DNA from: a virus
Taxonomy: Duplodnaviria > Caudoviricetes
Strand: one strand, 5' to 3'
IMG/VR virus record: IMGVR_UViG_3300033121_000711
Coordinates: 1 to 64,000 of that record
DNA length: 64,000 bases
Shown: positions 3,119 to 64,000 of the stretch, one piece after another
How positions within the stretch are numbered: position 1 is the first letter of the stretch
Layout of the letters: each line of letters begins with the position of its first letter
The notes under the pieces: generated by a model
Told to the model about the DNA's origin: nothing
Database searches by the model: none
What the model saw: the letters and a program-made list of their open reading frames with translations, nothing else
Made by a program: the position numbers and the translations under genes

Positions 3119-3571
3119 CTAGAGGAACAATCTAGGATCACAATTACGTGGCCACTCGTAAGGGAGAAGCGGTGAGTCGGTCCAACCAAACGCACTATAA
3201 TAGAGATAATCTTTCCTAAGTAAATTACCTCTATGACTCGCGTGAAAAGCTTCATTGCCTAGCCATTTTGGCAGTGGCACAGATTGTTGAGTAGGCGTAA
3301 AATCAACAGTCTTATAAGCAAGAATTTTTCCATAACACGAATCTTTAAAACCCCTATCCAGCCATTCTGAACAAATAGCTAGACCGTAAGCCACAAGTGC
3401 GTCTTTGAAACCCCACCACATAATACAAGCCGGATGTCTATGGACTCGATCTTTTGGATTATCCAATCCATTCAGTAACTGAATAACTTCTGCACGCTGT
3501 TTACCTAATCTTCTATCGTCTAGAACACTTGCCGACTGGACAAAATCGGCATAAGGTAAAAACGTCTGCAC
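3119..3571 (-). CDS. pyrimidine dimer DNA glycosylase / endonuclease V-like (MSMEG_6728 family)
   Basis: MQTFLPYADF..SA.VLD.RRLGKQR.E, HPA..MW, PKWLG...FHASHR.NLLRKD motifs. Confidence 0.85.
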   Translation of the reverse strand: MQTFLPYADFVQSASVLDDRRLGKQRAEVIQLLNGLDNPKDRVHRHPACIMWWGFKDALVAYGLAICSEWLDRGFKDSCYGKILAYKTVDFTPTQQSVPLPKWLGNEAFHASHRGNLLRKDYLYYSAFGWTDSPLLPYEWPRNCDPRLFL

Positions 3572-3574
3572 AAG

Positions 3575-4267
3575 CTACTCTTTGTTAAGGCGATCGAATC
3601 TATCCTCCATCTCTTTCCTAAGCCTATGGACGTAGGCTGTGGAAATTCCTAACTGCTGACCAATCTCAGCATCAGTATAACCTTGTGATCGCTTCTCCAG
3701 GATTATACGATCACGATCAGACTTAGCTGAAAGACCCAACATCTCCTTCAAAGCTAGAAAACCACCAGCAATAGTTGAACGAATTTTATAACATTTACTC
3801 AAATGTTTTTCATTATTACCCGAATCAATTTCCCGCTCATCCATTACCACCGCAGTAACTGTACGAAGTTCACGTCCTTGCTTTTTTGCTTTACTGTAAG
3901 TGGTTGCGGGAACCCTTACCAAGTGATCTTTTTCGTAAAATTGACGAATAAAACGTCTAATATTTACAATCACCCAAGCAGTCAAATTATCGTCGTACAA
4001 TTTTTCTTTAGCACGATCTAAGGCATACGCGATGCCGAACAGTGCTGCTGAAGCGTAATCGTCTCCTTTCTCTGGTCGTTGCCTAGAATAACGTGCGGCC
4101 ATTCTTAAAGCCAACTTGATATAACTGCAACCAAGTTCTTCACGTTCAATCTGAGTTATACAACCGTTACGAAGACGCCCAATAAGATAGGTTAACCTTT
4201 CAGGTGTTACGCTATTTGTAGCGTTGCCTAACGGGTGTTTTAGATTAACCTTCTTAGGTCTTTGCAT
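3575..4267 (-). CDS. phage-encoded sigma-70 family RNA polymerase sigma factor
   Basis: Region-2-like IKLALRMAARY...DDY.S.A..GI..A...LTAWV...IR...VRVP and region-4 HTH GYTDAEIGQQLGISTAYVHRLR; AGGAG RBS before ATG 4267. Confidence 0.8.
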   Translation of the reverse strand: MQRPKKVNLKHPLGNATNSVTPERLTYLIGRLRNGCITQIEREELGCSYIKLALRMAARYSRQRPEKGDDYASAALFGIAYALDRAKEKLYDDNLTAWVIVNIRRFIRQFYEKDHLVRVPATTYSKAKKQGRELRTVTAVVMDEREIDSGNNEKHLSKCYKIRSTIAGGFLALKEMLGLSAKSDRDRIILEKRSQGYTDAEIGQQLGISTAYVHRLRKEMEDRFDRLNKE

Positions 4268-4366
4268 ACGCTCTCCTAAATTATTGAAACTGGGATGAGC
4301 TTCCACAATCGACGCCGGTTGTGGAGCTTGATTTGATTTTCAATTCAAATAACACCTCCTAACACC

Positions 4367-4866: not shown

Positions 4867-5538
4867 TTACGCAGAGATATCGTGTTCTTTTTCAAAATAC
4901 GTGAGATCCCCGTTCTCTTGGAACGAGACATCAAAATCTTCAAGAACGAGAGGCTCAGCCAAACTGGCATGAGTAACAGTCACGGTCATATCAGTGTTCT
5001 CACCAGCAACTAGCGTAAGAAATTCTGCACGACCATTAGAATCTGTTGTACCCCTTGCCACAAGACCTTTAGAACCAACTGCAACAACTTCAGCACCAAC
5101 AAGCGGTGTTGCACCATCAAAAAGATCAAGACGAACAGAAGAATAACCCCACCAAAGTGGACCGATAGCATCGTTGTTCGGCCTTGGTGCGAGGACACCT
5201 CCAAGCTGAAGTGCAGGAGTTTGAACTGGGAATACATCCCAGCCATTAACATCATTAGCTTCGGCACCGATAACTGTAAAAGTTGTAGGCTCATATCCGG
5301 GAGCAGTCACAACGATTTCAAGATCAGTTCCAGAAGTATAATCGACATTGACGTCACAAGAGCCTTGAGGCGTAGCAGGAGGCACAGTATTCTGACTCTC
5401 AACAGGAGTTGTAACAAGCGGAGCTGTAACAACTCCCGGCCGACCCTTAGCAAAAATTGTTACTGTAGCATTAGTCAGCGGCGAGTAGCCCAAATTCTCA
5501 GCCACAGAAACACGCATCTGGAATCGATTGTTTGGCAT
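4867..5538 (-). CDS. acidic beta-sandwich protein (two carboxypeptidase-regulatory-like repeats)
   Basis: PLTNATVTI...VTAPGY and PLVGAEV...GTTDSNGRA motifs. Confidence 0.5.
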   Translation of the reverse strand: MPNNRFQMRVSVAENLGYSPLTNATVTIFAKGRPGVVTAPLVTTPVESQNTVPPATPQGSCDVNVDYTSGTDLEIVVTAPGYEPTTFTVIGAEANDVNGWDVFPVQTPALQLGGVLAPRPNNDAIGPLWWGYSSVRLDLFDGATPLVGAEVVAVGSKGLVARGTTDSNGRAEFLTLVAGENTDMTVTVTHASLAEPLVLEDFDVSFQENGDLTYFEKEHDISA

Positions 5539-6024: not shown

Positions 6025-6475
6025 TCCATTCGTTAGAAGCGTCTTTCAATTCTCGACTAATACAACAGCCGAGAACAACAACTTTAACACCTTCAGATTT
6101 TAGATATTCAACCAACGGTACAAAAGCAGAGTTAGCAGTGCACAGAATAACTGTATCAGTACGCTTACTATAACGTACTGCGTCCACTGCAATACCTACC
6201 TCCCAGTCTGCTCTCCTTATATTCCTCTTCTCACCTTCCATAGGAGAAGAAGGCTCCCTGTACTTAGGCTCGTAACCAATCTTCCTTAAGCAGGAAATAA
6301 AAGCAGATGCTTCAGCTTGTTGCTGAACGCCGTAAGCAAAACAACGAACAATAGAACCAACAGTTTGAGCTGTTTTATAAAGCCGCTCATAATCAAGCTT
6401 ACGATTCTCGAACTTTCGTCCGACCGTATAGTAAAGATTCGAGATATCAGCGAACAAGACGCAACGATTCAACAT
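5963..6475 (-). CDS. NYN/LabA-like PIN-domain protein, degenerate active site
   Basis: LFADISNLYY, ADWEVGIAVDA, F.PLVEYLK..G..V.V, S.ELK...EWI; the usual SGDxDF is TANSAF. Confidence 0.8.
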   Translation of the reverse strand: MLNRCVLFADISNLYYTVGRKFENRKLDYERLYKTAQTVGSIVRCFAYGVQQQAEASAFISCLRKIGYEPKYREPSSPMEGEKRNIRRADWEVGIAVDAVRYSKRTDTVILCTANSAFVPLVEYLKSEGVKVVVLGCCISRELKDASNEWIEISVEHLEEIEAESFKEAS

Positions 6476-8648
6476 TGGGAATCTCACAAATTGGGCCGGA
6501 ACAGTACTTCTCATCGATTCCGTCGCTACCTTTCAAGGAAGACCAATCGATAGTACCGATCGCAGCAAGTCGCATTTCATACTCAGTTTTAGAGATGCCT
6601 TCCTCTGGCATCTGACGATAGGCCCCTTTACAAGAGTGAGGGAGCAGACTCACCGATTTAGTATGTGGTGCAATAGCTGAAAGAACAGGTTCTATGGAAT
6701 CTTCTTCATGTGTAGGATCATATTCATAAATCCACATCTTAGAGATACCTCTAGATGGTGCTTTATGCCATTCAATCCTAATTTTGTAGCGATTTGGCAC
6801 TTCATAAGATGTTAGATGATTGTAATGAATTTCGTAGCAAGCTGCAACACCAATCAGGTTATCCAGACATCGCTCGAAATTACAATCAACAACTTCAATC
6901 AGCGGCCATTTCGGCTTAAAATATAAAGTATTGCTTACAGCGTTATCTGCCCATTCCCGTTGAACAAGAATCAAATTCATAGCCTGTTCCCAAAGGGATA
7001 CTTCGTAAGCAGGCTTTGCTGGTCCTTGTAAAATCGGAAATTCAAAAACATCTGTATACTTGTCAAAATAATCCTCTTCAAAAGGTATACCAGCTTTGAC
7101 AAGCAATGGATGCACTGGCGAATTTTTAGCAACTCTAATTCGCCTAATCGTATAATCAAAAGTAGGATGTCCAATACCAGGAGTTTTACCAGGTAACTTA
7201 GGACCTGTACCACCTGGCTTGATCGTAGTTACTCTAATAGAGACAGGAACGCCAGCTTCTTCGTTAAGCTTTTTATTAGCCTTACGAATCAACTTATAAC
7301 CTTCCCGCATATATTTCGTAACTTTATGGACACTTTCTTTTAATTTCCATCCTGAAAAATCAACAATACTCACACCTATCCGTCTATTGCGAGCAACTAC
7401 TCGATTAGTTGCAGGCTGATGTGTAGGTATCAGTGAAACTGTTGATGAGTAAAACGTGGCAAAGTCACAAGCCCTAAGCCACTCTTCCTTGTTAGTACAC
7501 ATTGTCGGTAATGTTTCAACAACATTACAAACTTCTTTATCCTCTAAAGGAATCTCGCCACACGGATTGAAACCTTTTGCCTTATCTTTCCGAAGACCTT
7601 TCATCTTCTTGCCGATACGAGCGAAAGGCATATTCCTACGATTAATGTAGCCTGGCTCACCATTACGAATAACAGATTTTGCAATCTCGCCAAGCATCAT
7701 AAAATCTTCGTCAGTCTCAAGCTCAACAGAATTATTAGACATCCAACCAAAAGCTTCACGCTCTGGATAGAGATCGTAATTTTTAAGATTCATGAACGTT
7801 TTATCACGAACCTTACCTTTAGCTAATTCTGCTGACCGTCGAACGTTACCAGCGACAACACAACATCCTGTATGATTAGCTAAATTTGTGAAAAGGTAAA
7901 CACTATCATATTCAGGCCTAGTGTTATATTTTTCAAATTCGGCGATTGTGCGTTCATGCAAATCTTTCAAAGGTTCAGGACCTGATGAGATACCACCAAA
8001 TCCTTTGATAGGCAGCCCTGGACCTCTAACTTTATCATATATAAAACGCGGTTTCTTTTGTCCCGGTTTTGTATATGCGTCAATCAGTGTTTGTTCGCTA
8101 TGACACCAACCTTCTCGGGTATCAGGGATTACATAATCATAAGTACCGACAGGGTTATAGATTTTGAAACCGTCATCCCTAATAGGGCCAAAACCTACAC
8201 CGACACCATGCATTAAGCAATCCATCAACCAACTTATATCAGGCCCTAATGTCTTAGAATTAAGATCTGTATAAGCACAGTTGTAAAGAGCCATAGCTCC
8301 GCGTTCGTATACGAAATCAGAACCCATAGCCCACAATCCACGCCCAGGAGGCATCCATTGCATCATGAACATGGCATGGATGAATTTATTAGAATACTCC
8401 CTCCAATAATCTTCATCCCATTGAATATGGTTTTTCAGATACCAATCTTTACGAATACTGAAAGTCCCTTCAGTATTTCGTATACAAACATCTGCCCAAT
8501 CTTCCTGACCTTCATTATTTTTGATACGACTGTAAGTTCTCCAAAAAGTTAGTTCACCAAATCCATTGTAGCCAAACGGTGGAGTAAGGCTTTTAATCTT
8601 ATCCACCGTTGCTTCACTAACCTTAAAACGATGCTCTACAAAAGACAT
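6447..8648 (-). CDS. nrdJ: class II (adenosylcobalamin-dependent, monomeric RTPR-type) ribonucleotide reductase
   Basis: RTYSR, PPGRGLW, NCA, GVGVGF, VVAGNVRRSAE, NPCGEI, TTIKPGGT, C-terminal CSGPIC. Confidence 0.95.
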   Translation of the reverse strand: MSFVEHRFKVSEATVDKIKSLTPPFGYNGFGELTFWRTYSRIKNNEGQEDWADVCIRNTEGTFSIRKDWYLKNHIQWDEDYWREYSNKFIHAMFMMQWMPPGRGLWAMGSDFVYERGAMALYNCAYTDLNSKTLGPDISWLMDCLMHGVGVGFGPIRDDGFKIYNPVGTYDYVIPDTREGWCHSEQTLIDAYTKPGQKKPRFIYDKVRGPGLPIKGFGGISSGPEPLKDLHERTIAEFEKYNTRPEYDSVYLFTNLANHTGCCVVAGNVRRSAELAKGKVRDKTFMNLKNYDLYPEREAFGWMSNNSVELETDEDFMMLGEIAKSVIRNGEPGYINRRNMPFARIGKKMKGLRKDKAKGFNPCGEIPLEDKEVCNVVETLPTMCTNKEEWLRACDFATFYSSTVSLIPTHQPATNRVVARNRRIGVSIVDFSGWKLKESVHKVTKYMREGYKLIRKANKKLNEEAGVPVSIRVTTIKPGGTGPKLPGKTPGIGHPTFDYTIRRIRVAKNSPVHPLLVKAGIPFEEDYFDKYTDVFEFPILQGPAKPAYEVSLWEQAMNLILVQREWADNAVSNTLYFKPKWPLIEVVDCNFERCLDNLIGVAACYEIHYNHLTSYEVPNRYKIRIEWHKAPSRGISKMWIYEYDPTHEEDSIEPVLSAIAPHTKSVSLLPHSCKGAYRQMPEEGISKTEYEMRLAAIGTIDWSSLKGSDGIDEKYCSGPICEIPNVESLRLVR

Positions 8649-59055: not shown

Positions 59056-59172
59056 TCTCATATCTGTGCACGCTTTTTGGACCAAATTTTGACAGTGTTA
59101 GTTCCCTCATATAGAGATACTGCCTTTTACAGAAAATTTCTACAGCTATTTTTGGCCCAAAAAGCGTGCACG
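59056..59172. repeat. ~21-bp inverted repeat GTGCACGCTTTTTGG(A/G)CCAAA flanking the late promoter; third copy at 63980-64000
   Basis: 59056-59076 (+), 59151-59172 (-), 63980-64000 (+). Confidence 0.8.
59117..59143 (-). promoter_or_regulatory. phage-specific promoter motif copy 5 (GTAGA-N17-AGTAT), head of the late operon
   Basis: Matches the consensus and points into the structural operon. Confidence 0.7.
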
Positions 59173-59243: not shown

Positions 59244-59281
59244 AGGTAGGTGAGGGTATAAATTTTTTAGATTTGATTTTC

Positions 59282-59370
59282 AAAATCGCGATTTTGAAAA
59301 TCGCGATTTTGAAAATGCAAAATGCAAAAATGCTTTTTGTTTCTTGCTCTTGTTTCTTGTTTCTTGTTTA
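59282..59370. repeat. tandem palindromes and short repeats
   Basis: (AAAATCGCGATTTTG)x2, (AAAATGC)x3, (TTGTTTC) repeats. Confidence 0.75.
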
Positions 59371-59986: not shown

Positions 59987-60015
59987 TTGACAGCCGGCCG
60001 TTACTGGCCTAAGAT
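59987..60015 (+). promoter_or_regulatory. strong sigma70-type early promoter
   Basis: TTGACA-N17-TAAGAT with an upstream A/T tract. Confidence 0.8.
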
Positions 60016-60020
60016 GTATA

Positions 60021-60364
60021 TACCGGGAAAGGGAACGCACAGCGGTTCGAGTCCGCTACCCGGGCCTTGCCCACACCTTGTCTTGTTAAGGAGTCCGCGT
60101 AGCTTTTGAGGATCATGATCCCTAGCGGTCGTGTATCCGTGGTCTAGCGAACCTTCTAATTGGCGAGCCGTCCGGAACGGTCAACCCCGGTAGGGGAGAT
60201 ACGGGCCAAGCCGTGTGAACTGCTGTGTCACGGTAGGCTTATGAGGCGGGATACGCTGGTGACATTGAAAGCCAGGAACCGCTGACACCTTGTCCGCAAG
60301 GGAGCAATACGGAACCGCCGACCGTGGTGAAACTCCACGGCCAAGGAGCGGTCCCGGTATAACC
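60021..60364 (+). ncRNA. candidate large structured non-coding leader RNA beginning with a tRNA-like minihelix
   Basis: No ORF in the track; T-arm AGCGG-TTCGAGT-CCGCT closed by CCGGG/CCCGG; many stems including GCAA and TGAAA loops. Confidence 0.6.
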
Positions 60365-60890
60365 GGGGGATAGGCAAAGGGGCTGGACTCTTAACTCTTA
60401 AGAGAAAGGCCAGTCCGATGATTACCAGCTATAAGAACCAAGTCTGCGTCCGTGAGTCAGTCGAAATGGGTCGGACCTACGAGATCCGCTTCTACACTAA
60501 CCCGGAAGGGGAGGTCTACGGTATCAGCGTCTCGCTGGCCACCAGCGGGAACTGGAACTGGACGAAGAATGTCGGGTCGTATGACGACTGGCAAATTAAG
60601 ACTCGGGTCGAAGATGCGGCCATCGAGGCCGGACTCACGATCCCGGCGTACCTCTGGTACGTCGAGCCAGAATGCGAAAGTTTCTGGCTTGTCGTAATCA
60701 ACGAGAACATGAACGACTTCAATGCTCGGGTCGTCAACGATACCGAGTACATCCCGTTCACAAACGAGCGTATCTACACCGCATGCCGAGAGCTGGATAC
60801 GGCTCTCGAACAACTCGAGGAAGCGAAAAGCTACCTCGCAGAACGTTTCGGTCGCTAATCACCTCAGTCCAGCCTCTCTGCCTGTCCCCC
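60365..60890. repeat. inverted repeat pair 1 (25 bp) enclosing ORF 60418-60858
   Basis: 60365-60389 / 60866-60890; 22 WC pairs, 2 G-U, 1 A-C. Confidence 0.9.
60418..60858 (+). CDS. early hypothetical protein
   Basis: ORF with a purine-rich RBS. Confidence 0.7.
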   Translation: MITSYKNQVCVRESVEMGRTYEIRFYTNPEGEVYGISVSLATSGNWNWTKNVGSYDDWQIKTRVEDAAIEAGLTIPAYLWYVEPECESFWLVVINENMNDFNARVVNDTEYIPFTNERIYTACRELDTALEQLEEAKSYLAERFGR

Positions 60891-60909
60891 CTGTTGTACA
60901 TGGGAATAG

Positions 60910-61278
60910 CGTAGGATCCGTACAAACGGGCCGTCAACAGAATGGACGGTCAAGATGTACGAGACATATACTTCTGACGGCGAATTTCTGGAGTTCTACG
61001 ATAGCGTCATGGACGCTATCCTAGGGACTCTGAAATACTGGCCTGAGGACAACAACCCTAAGACGGTCGTTGTCCGTAACCCGGAAGGCATAGACCTTGC
61101 CACGATAGCGGCAAGGTCATGTTATGAGGCGGTAGTAGTAACGGCCGACCACATTGAAGTGGTCAGCCAGATTAACTACTGCGATGGCCGCATCGTCGCG
61201 ACAACCATGCTAAGAAATGGCCATCAGTTCAAGATCAACCACTAACAGGGTTGACGGCCCGTCTGTACGGATCCTACG
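60910..61278. repeat. inverted repeat pair 2 (29 bp) enclosing ORF 60955-61245
   Basis: 60910-60938 / 61250-61278; one mismatch. Confidence 0.92.
60955..61245 (+). CDS. early hypothetical protein
   Basis: ORF track. Confidence 0.7.
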   Translation: MYETYTSDGEFLEFYDSVMDAILGTLKYWPEDNNPKTVVVRNPEGIDLATIAARSCYEAVVVTADHIEVVSQINYCDGRIVATTMLRNGHQFKINH

Positions 61279-62560
61279 TTGGGTGTGGTGTCTCCGCCAA
61301 TACCCCGGATAGTATAATCCCGGATTTTCAACATCAGAGTTTCTACTATCCGGTAGACTGCGTGTGCAGTCTACCTTAACTATGTTCGAGCCGGTTGGCT
61401 CGAAACTGTTCAGGAGTGTATATCATGGCGAAGAACATCACGAAAACCGTTTCGATCGACACCTTGATCGTGGACTTCAAGACCAATGTGCGTCTGGCGT
61501 CCAACTACGATCTCCCGGCAATGGAGCAGTCCATTGTCGAGAAAGGGAGGATCGAGGATGCGATACATGCCAGACTGTGTGACGGCGTTGTCCTTCGGGG
61601 TAATCGTCGCACGCTCGCAGGGCAGAAACTGCTGAAGGATCCCGCCACCCCGCAAGAGGTGGTCGCTAACCTGAAAAAGGTCGTCGTGATCTATCACGAC
61701 GTGGCACCGGGATCAGCGGAGGAGCTGTCCATTGTCCTCGATCACGGTAGCCAGAAGAAGCTGTGCAAGACGGAAGTCTTGTTGAGCGTCTGGCGGCTCG
61801 ATCGCCAGTTCCAGAGCGAGATGCAGATCATCAACCGACTGTACTTCGCTCTGGCGGAGTACACTCGTCGCCAGGAAAAGGCGATCGAGGCTAGCAAGAT
61901 CGTGTCTCTCAAGGAGAGGCAGGACTACCTCCGATCGTGGTTGCACGGAACCGTCGGCAACTATATGTTGGCCGGCAACAAGATGGGCGAGTACGTGCGT
62001 CAGCAGATGGAATTGACCCACATGGCCGAAGACGGCCTACTCCCGCAAGGTGTTACGGTCGAGTGCAAGATCGACCGGACTAGAATGACGAAACTGTCCG
62101 CCGCGAAAGAAGCGGACAGCGACGCCAAGAAGGGCGGAAAGGGCTGGACGTACGAGGCTGGCGGCGAGAAGTTCAATGAACTTCTCGAAACGTTCAAGGC
62201 CGAGGATCGTGGCGAAGTCGAGAAGGAGAAGAAAAGCCGGCCTTCCCCGAAGGAGTTGAAGGATCGGGCAAACTCCTTCAAGAGCCCTGCCATCAGGTCT
62301 GCCCTGATGGTTGCGGCCGGAGAGGTTGAACACGGCAAGGATCTCGTGGAGCTGGATGACCGTCTGCATCGTATGCAGATGGTCACGGATACGCTGTCCA
62401 AGCGTATCGGAGAGATCGCCGACGAAAAGATCGTTGCCCTCATCAAGGCCATCATCGGCGATGGACCGGCCGGTGAAATTGAATTGGCGATCAACAAGAT
62501 CGTCGGCAAGTAAAGTAAGTTAGCCCCTATCCGGGGTATTGACGAAGCCACCACACCCAA
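61279..62560. repeat. inverted repeat pair 3 (34 bp) enclosing ORF 61425-62513
   Basis: 61279-61312 / 62527-62560; three mismatches. Confidence 0.92.
61425..62513 (+). CDS. divergent ParB/Srx N-terminal domain protein
   Basis: NVR...Y.LPAM..SI...G, VLRGNRR..A; AGGAG RBS. Confidence 0.75.
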   Translation: MAKNITKTVSIDTLIVDFKTNVRLASNYDLPAMEQSIVEKGRIEDAIHARLCDGVVLRGNRRTLAGQKLLKDPATPQEVVANLKKVVVIYHDVAPGSAEELSIVLDHGSQKKLCKTEVLLSVWRLDRQFQSEMQIINRLYFALAEYTRRQEKAIEASKIVSLKERQDYLRSWLHGTVGNYMLAGNKMGEYVRQQMELTHMAEDGLLPQGVTVECKIDRTRMTKLSAAKEADSDAKKGGKGWTYEAGGEKFNELLETFKAEDRGEVEKEKKSRPSPKELKDRANSFKSPAIRSALMVAAGEVEHGKDLVELDDRLHRMQMVTDTLSKRIGEIADEKIVALIKAIIGDGPAGEIELAINKIVGK

Positions 62561-62748: not shown

Positions 62749-62909
62749 AGATCCAGACGACTGGTAGGTTCATCAGTGTTTGCGAGCCCAACCAAGGTCG
62801 CACGTATGATGAAAATGGGCGTTTGCTTACGCGATCGCTCGTTACTGGGCGATCCCGCAAGCTGAACAAAAAGCTTCACGCACGCAAACTAAGGCGTGAA
62901 GTTATTTAG
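62745..62909 (+). CDS. small basic hypothetical protein
   Basis: GGAG RBS, ATGA overlap. Confidence 0.55.
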   Translation: MKIQTTGRFISVCEPNQGRTYDENGRLLTRSLVTGRSRKLNKKLHARKLRREVI

Positions 62910-62996
62910 TCCACATCCGGGGTAGCGATCATCCCCCGCTACTGAAACATAGGGGATGAACGGAGACACCACATTTGTTTCCCGGAGTGAAAAAGC

Positions 62997-63904: not shown

Positions 63905-63940
63905 AAAAATGGCCGGTATTGTACAATACCGGCCATTTTT
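63905..63940. terminator. intrinsic terminator
   Basis: AAAAATGGCCGGTATTG-ta-CAATACCGGCCATTTTT. Confidence 0.85.
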
Positions 63941-64000
63941 TGATTTGACCAAGCTAACTAGCTTGGTCCAAGCCAATTCGTGCACGCTTTTTGGCCCAAA

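Follow-up and report, generated by a model that had tools for sequence, protein, structure and literature searches.

The stretch of DNA analysed here (the window, 64,000 nucleotides) comprises the first 64 kb of a single-contig record of 92,712 bp, from an uncultured phage, with approx. 40% G+C, and contains at ~59.4-63.0 kb an island with 54% G+C. A sigma-70-type promoter within this island heads a leader and three cassettes (Table 1); the leader between the promoter and gene 1 is ORF-free and ~340 nt long, and it is followed by three + strand genes. A scan for promoters and terminators found no promoter-like or terminator-like sites between the three cassettes, and no minus-strand promoter-like site was found inside them. 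Transcription of the three early genes as one RNA from this promoter would be the best explanation, within a reading that, taken as a whole, we hold with even confidence. For gene 2, zero relatives were found among the 5.8 billion proteins searched, and the profile of the ParB-like family that includes gene 3 gave no solved relative by sequence; likewise, no match was obtained with Rfam over the island at gathering and E-value thresholds, with phage DNA and protein collections, or in single-protein scans of viral and genome collections.

Several other repeats were noticed around the island. A word of ~20 nt (CGTGCACGCTTTTTGGCCCA and its complement) is present in both orientations on both sides of it, in the window at 59066-59086, 59149-59171 and 63978-64000, and past the window at genome positions 64004-64023, 64271-64291 and 64305-64324; this word may have a regulatory role or mark a boundary. 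A tandem 15-nt palindromic repeat (GATTTTSAAAATCGC) precedes the island at 59275-59304, and the operon is closed by a perfect 18+18-nt palindrome placed between A and T runs (63905-63940), which resembles a bidirectional terminator.

Table 1. Features of the early island (positions are those of the window)
Feature	Position	Strand	Remarks
Sigma-70-type promoter	59987-60015	+	TTGACA, 17 nt, TAAGAT; 10/12 matches; heads leader and three cassettes
Panhandle 1, 5' arm	60365-60389	+	inner end 60380-60389 doubles as 5' strand of the local RBS hairpin
Small hairpin CTCTTAA-CTC-TTAAGAG	60388-60404	+	within the local structure of gene 1
Local partner of arm 1	60407-60416	+	-11..-2 of AUG; best interior partner in the cassette (1st of 75)
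Gene 1	60418-60858	+	146 aa; no family match (Pfam, PHROGs)
Panhandle 1, 3' arm	60866-60890	+	25 nt, 88% complementary; forms in the full-length MFE
Panhandle 2, 5' arm	60908-60938	+	60929-60935 and 60919-60924 shared with two local helices; 60910-60938 is the part paired with 61250-61278
Local partners of arm 2	60945-60951, 60956-60961, 60963-64	+	SD-like; AUG U,G and codon 2; spacing copies the 3' arm
Gene 2	60955-61245	+	96 aa; no family in Pfam, PHROGs
Panhandle 2, 3' arm	61250-61280	+	29-31 nt, 97% complementary
Panhandle 3, 5' arm	61279-61312	+	34 nt; 29/34 pair with leader and start region in the nascent fold
Leader copy of 3' arm 3 inner end	61346-61353	+	pairs with 61305-61312
Gene 3 start-region decoy	61418-61448	+	segments 61418-21, 61426-30 (AUG U,G), 61432-33, 61435-41, 61446-48
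Gene 3	61425-62513	+	362 aa; family of 49 proteins, one with PF02195 (ParB N-terminal domain)
Panhandle 3, 3' arm	62527-62560	+	34 nt, 91% complementary; duplex -54.7 kcal/mol

Each of the three genes is bracketed by the two arms of an inverted repeat, predicted to pair over the gene as a panhandle. A genome-wide scan revealed that long-range G+C-rich repeats of this type are confined to the early island; 0-20 nt separate each 3' arm from the next 5' arm, and these two are not mutually complementary. The same layout is present in relatives. Six related loci, for which DNA was obtained among the 49 proteins of the ParB-like family and whose ParB-like gene has 31-62% identity, together with the window gave a set of 21 panhandle cassettes. 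The ParB-like gene is bracketed by inverted repeats of 18-34 nt in all seven loci (18-31 nt in the six related ones), with arm sequences that are unrelated, and adjacent small genes in the related loci are also bracketed by panhandles. Among the first 19 cassettes, the spacer from the 5' arm to the ATG has 13-28 nt in 13, and the spacer from the stop codon to the 3' arm 2-16 nt in 15. At the level of sequence, the comparison of the seven loci shows that the panhandle, with complementary flanks that enclose a whole RNA, is conserved by co-variation. Its most likely role is that of a stem for processing and stabilisation, as in rRNA, which a host enzyme of the RNase III type would cleave; no phage-encoded RNase III gene was found in the record.

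The related loci and the surroundings of the cassettes contain additional repeats. In L001, a 33-nt outer repeat with 32 matches (4314-4346 / 7227-7259) encloses five cassettes and ends within the ORF belonging to a sixth one, and an arm core (CGCCGAGGTGC) is common to four consecutive cassettes at 6201-7617, so that those arms are paralogous. L007 has a 56-nt inverted repeat with 50 matches (2523-2578 / 2707-2762) around a 128-nt ORF-free stretch, and in the 370-nt leader of its ParB-like gene a word of ~17 nt (AAGGGCCATAAGCAAAT-like) is repeated three to four times (3540-3670); these words may be binding sites. In the window, a second promoter-like site is directly followed by the segment 59504-59526, which shows 78% complementarity with 3' arm 1 (60869-60891) and is a possible outer or alternative partner.

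An initial sequence-only reading of this region proposed that the inner ends of 5' arms 1 and 2 can pair locally, burying the ribosome-binding site (RBS) of the gene that follows. For gene 1 the letters are as described: GGGCTGG at 60380-60386 pairs with CCAGTCC at 60410-60416 through seven pairs including one G.U, the strands CTCTTAA (60388-60394) and TTAAGAG (60398-60404) close a loop of 3 nt, and the purine run is located at 60400-60409, followed by the ATG at 60418. The proposed structure is the exact MFE of 60378-60421, with -15.8 kcal/mol and a z of -1.97, and 9 of 200 shuffles were as good; compared with arm shuffles, this hairpin gave p values from 0.25 to 0.04 depending on the measure. 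Two tandem CTCTTAA words (60388-60401) lie directly after 5' arm 1 and resemble the lambda/rrn boxA core (CGCTCTTA); in the six related loci there is one copy of CTCTTAA, at 257 of L007 only, outside the cassettes.

For gene 2, GCCGTC (60930-60935), GACGGT (60945-60950), the SD-like GGACGG (60944-60949) and the ATG at 60955 were likewise found in place, and the hairpin is the MFE, with a helix of 7 bp (60929-60935/60945-60951), -10.7 kcal/mol and a z of -2.79 (3 of 200 shuffles). In an 83-nt context, a second helix that was absent from that reading, between 60919-60924 and 60956-60961, covers the U and the G of the AUG. The duplex of arm 2 with its RBS differed from shuffles with p 0.001, and by RBS opening cost the gene 2 hairpin gave p 0.085.

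The same reading considered that an RBS-occluding design was not obvious for gene 3, a statement that the folding refutes: the nascent segment 61279-61460 folds with -65.8 kcal/mol and a z of -5.07, and none of 200 shuffles reached this value. In this fold the 29 paired nucleotides of arm 3 are distributed over collinear stretches of leader and start region, in the same order in which they would pair with the 3' arm, and among the three early genes gene 3 is the strongest for a start segment that resembles the 3' arm. In L002, the closest locus with DNA, codons 4-6 differ and the arm differs to match. Arm 3 has, in addition, a second and split 3' partner at 62911-62975, where two segments pair with 61284-61296 and 61301-61310 with an inserted hairpin between them (duplex -43.6 kcal/mol). 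The beginning of this split partner repeats that of 3' arm 3 in direct orientation (62510-62538 / 62896-62924), and if arm 3 paired here, genes 3, 4 and 5 would lie together within an alternative or nested panhandle.

To see whether the complementarity between a 5' arm and its own RBS/start region is specific, we evaluated the complete set of cassettes, with start codons assigned from the ORFs and SD-like motifs. Against arm shuffles (dinucleotide or mononucleotide), the match gave Fisher p values of 1e-8 for duplex energy and 2.7e-6 for the ungapped helix, and against windows of the same size in the same ORF p was ~6e-3. In 8/21 cassettes the arm has its best interior partner within -20..+20 of the AUG, compared with 2.6 expected (P 0.0018; P 0.0003 without three paralogous L001 arms). 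When arms were swapped between all 21 cassettes, a fit as good as the observed one did not occur in 100,000 permutations (p ~1e-5); with the seven ParB-like cassettes only, p was ~1e-3, and swaps within a locus, which control for composition, gave p values of 1e-5 to 4e-5. Comparison of the own arm with the reversed arm gave p values of 2e-5 to 3e-3. In the window, the helix scores on the own RBS were 19, 18 and 17 for the own arms versus 12.5-13.5 for the other two arms. As regards chance, the two hairpins alone are marginal (arm-shuffle p 0.04-0.3, depending on the measure), but the family of 21 is clearly non-random.

The partner is frequently the start codon together with the first codons, rather than the Shine-Dalgarno (SD) sequence. 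In L005, the arm segment 2056-2069 matches 2106-2119 with 13/14 pairs across the AUG; in L001, 4898-4913 matches 4955-4970, 16 nt at -1..+14; in L007, the arm matches 3738-3752, 15 nt at +1..+15, behind the 370-nt leader; and in L003, 138-149 matches the SD at 158-169 with 12 pairs. In these four cases, as well as in gene 3, the RBS/start segment reproduces part of the 3' arm in degenerate form, and in L003 and L007 the start copy departs from the 3' arm by transitions, which preserve G.U pairing on the coding strand. A special arm-start match is absent in ~10/21 cassettes, including three small L005 and two L001 cassettes. Taken together, the sequence comparisons support the view that the RBS/start of the gene is a specific second partner of its 5' arm, and this feature is kept in relatives with unrelated sequences.

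Over all cassettes, the panhandles contain 464 Watson-Crick pairs (95%), 9 G.U, 9 A.C and 7 other; G.U and A.C are equal (9:9), i.e., there is no + strand wobble excess, so that these counts do not establish that the long repeats arose at the RNA level. This composition would suit a process at the DNA level, in which the inverted repeats and the third copy at the decoy are traces of the making or exchange of cassettes, by template switching or arm recombination, without function in the RNA. A contig from a riverine metagenome points in the same direction: it matches 60355-60412, that is 5' arm 1 and the leader, and then enters a different gene, so the gene between the arms may be swapped among relatives. 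However, the arms are unrelated between homologues and yet each matches its own conserved coding start, which argues that they track the start region and are not relics. Furthermore, neither a core motif common to the arms nor target duplications were found, nor a recombinase near the cassettes, and in the alternative helices, under symmetric scoring, G.U pairs outnumber A.C by 11 to 4 on the + (coding) strand. An origin without RNA function is, in our opinion, very improbable.

The behaviour of the growing transcript was approached by folding RNAs of increasing length; these folds are equilibrium snapshots and not kinetic simulations. The local hairpins are built from nucleotides of the panhandle 5' arm and therefore exclude the panhandle, as had been proposed. 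In the equilibrium folds of growing transcripts, the arm remains paired with the RBS-proximal region as long as the 3' arm is shorter than ~14 nt; beyond this length the panhandle wins in every cassette. SD-sequestering hairpins are predicted in truncated RNAs, and the panhandle is present in the predicted full-length MFE of 21/21 cassettes, being worth 14-45 kcal/mol in the long ones. From the length just before the 3' arm to full length, the cost of opening -15..+2 decreases from 10.0 to 5.0 kcal/mol for gene 1, from 9.3 to 6.4 for gene 2 and from 9.2 to 5.6 for gene 3, and in L003-121 it drops by ~12 kcal/mol (18.2 to 6.4). The refolding barrier along a direct path is ~4 kcal/mol for gene 2 and L003-121; for gene 1 and L001-6549 the values of 11.8 and 21.9 kcal/mol are upper bounds. 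From these models we infer that panhandle and decoy structures would form in vivo.

The effect on the RBS is less uniform. Shuffled free arms also raise the opening cost of the RBS (null mean 4.2 kcal/mol for gene 1), and part of the opening effect is thus generic. For gene 2 the mean unpaired probability barely shifts (0.27 to 0.33 for the SD and 0.36 to 0.28 for the AUG), and in the full-length MFE folds the freed RBS re-pairs with ORF sequence. The number of unpaired RBS nucleotides in these full-length folds gave no discrimination, because the G+C-rich ORFs pair nearly everything. Accordingly, the idea of an RBS closed on nascent RNA and opened by the 3' arm finds backing in the equilibrium folds by length, with a drop of 3-5 kcal/mol for the three genes, but it is weakened by the nearly constant accessibility of gene 2 and by the generic part of the opening.

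These same observations would be accounted for if the panhandles were genuine RNA helices serving excision of the RNase III type and stabilisation of the mRNA, and the G+C-rich free arm paired with whatever is next to it, leaving translation ungated. The response of the opening cost to shuffled arms, the individually marginal hairpins of the window, the roughly half of the cassettes that lack a special match and the nearly constant accessibility of the gene 2 RBS all fit such stems dedicated to processing. Nevertheless, swapped, reversed or shuffled arms fit an RBS/start much less well than its own arm does, and in ParB-like cassettes with long leaders the best partner is at the AUG despite a leader of 112-370 nt and an ORF of ~1 kb; moreover, in L001-4887 and gene 3 some positions of the arm match the start copy even though this introduces a mismatch into the panhandle. 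A function limited to processing seems to us unlikely.

It could also be thought that the decoy is a folding guide that protects the 5' arm against nucleases and keeps it from pairing wrongly with the ORF while the 3' arm is still to be made, in which case closure of the RBS would be incidental. Almost all of the gene 3 arm is accommodated on collinear leader and start segments, the barriers for the hand-over to the 3' arm are low, and metastable hairpins of the hok type act as folding guides (PMC6733600), all of which would agree with such a role. Nonetheless, an arm that had only to be parked could be parked anywhere in the leader, and yet in the significant cases the site overlaps the SD or the AUG, even in L007 with its leader of 370 nt. 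We judge it improbable that shielding is the main role of the decoy.

The model that we favour, although the case for and against it is about balanced, is a three-strand switch in which the 5' arm rests on a start-site decoy and is subsequently captured by the 3' arm, freeing the RBS. According to this model, each 5' strand would have two partners, the distant 3' strand and a nearby, weaker and degenerate copy of part of that 3' strand, which overlaps the SD region or the start codon of the gene itself. On nascent RNA, pairing of the 5' strand with the decoy would keep the RBS in a helix; when synthesis of the 3' strand is about half complete, the decoy would be displaced by the longer helix, the panhandle would form and the RBS would be freed. 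Since the RBS would be freed only after synthesis of the 3' strand, translation of each cassette would be delayed until the cassette is complete. Ribosome binding would then be gated by these structures, and translation probably waits for transcription of the whole gene. A wider formulation, which we regard as possible but somewhat short of an even prospect, is that a sequence-independent switch (5' arm, decoy, 3' arm) would tie initiation to the completion, and probably to the RNase III excision, of its own cassette, acting as a modular completeness checkpoint. Another consequence of the geometry is that, with 2-16 nt between the stop codon and the helix, and a few nt between the SD and the other strand of that helix, the closed loop could place terminating ribosomes beside the start of the same gene; if this occurs, it would couple termination to re-initiation or transiently re-close the RBS.

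Bacterial translation normally begins during mRNA synthesis; if the switch operates as proposed, a conserved device that withholds the RBS up to the point where the 3' flank of the gene is transcribed would represent a new way to put RNA processing ahead of translation, and arm, decoy and arm would constitute a design rule, portable and free of any fixed sequence, for building delay or completeness gates. Should the switch be inert, the panhandle cassettes would still be an apparently undescribed layout of a phage early operon: no description of gene-by-gene panhandles in phage operons, or of such panhandles with start-site decoys, was found in the literature.

Several known elements were considered as counterparts of the cassettes. 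Integron attC sites are compact imperfect hairpins located 3' of an ORF, with conserved RYYYAAC and GTTRRRY cores; they were rejected, given that the arms described here bracket the ORF at 0.3-1.2 kb and have no core common to the cassettes. Transposon-like terminal repeats were also rejected. The intercistronic RNase III sites of the T7 type are local hairpins with an internal loop between genes, and they do not apply either, since adjacent 3' and 5' arms are not complementary and the pairing spans the gene.

The closest logic is that of hok/sok and of the aapA3/IsoA3 system of Helicobacter, which have metastable SD hairpins and a 5'-3' long-distance interaction; in these systems the long-distance pairing sequesters the SD and the full-length mRNA is inert until its 3' end is trimmed (PMC6733600). 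A 5'-3' long-distance interaction of the hok/aapA type is predicted in the MFE of all 21 cassettes, and the arm-start match is statistically specific in the swap and reversal tests. In contrast with hok and aapA3, the long-distance helix described here would remove the anti-RBS strand and should open the RBS; the panhandle does not sequester the SD, because the arms lie upstream of the RBS and the opening cost falls by 3-5 kcal/mol. Other differences are that neither a toxin nor an antisense RNA is involved, and that successive genes of an operon each carry the design; the cassette products have 96-362 aa, one of them is ParB-like, and they do not correspond to a small toxic peptide gene with a cis-antisense RNA. 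In the leader of the maturation gene of MS2 and other Levivirus, the RBS is open transiently on nascent RNA and closed at equilibrium (PMC4615214). That leader resembles the present cassettes in that the RBS is contested by a complementary sequence upstream of it, with the timing set by the order of synthesis; nevertheless, the polarity predicted here is the opposite, and an RBS that is first open and then closed was not found.

Another element to be considered is the 3' UTR of icaR of Staphylococcus aureus, which is complementary to the SD and represses translation. The likeness is that a 3' element of an mRNA influences, here by prediction, how translation is initiated at the 5' end of that mRNA; the difference is that the 3' arm resembles the RBS/start in the same sense and competes for the repressor strand. 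An anti-SD repression of the icaR type was thus discarded, since the start segment copies the 3' arm and does not pair with it. In the trp leader and in ermC attenuation, a segment A pairs with either B or C, and the choice sets expression. The same three-segment logic would operate in the cassettes, with the choice being made by the completion of a transcript of 0.3-1.3 kb and not by a stalled ribosome or a ligand.

Finally, the leader-trailer helices of bacterial rRNA operons are RNase III substrates and offer the nearest likeness for the panhandles themselves: in both, long and near-perfect helices are formed by complementary flanks that pair over the enclosed RNA, unit after unit, in one transcript. 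The rRNA helices are not known to bear a decoy that controls a ribosome-binding site; in addition, the RNAs enclosed here are mRNAs, and their cleavage is putative. If the model is true, phages would handle these mRNAs in the manner of rRNA precursors, which are folded, excised and then used.
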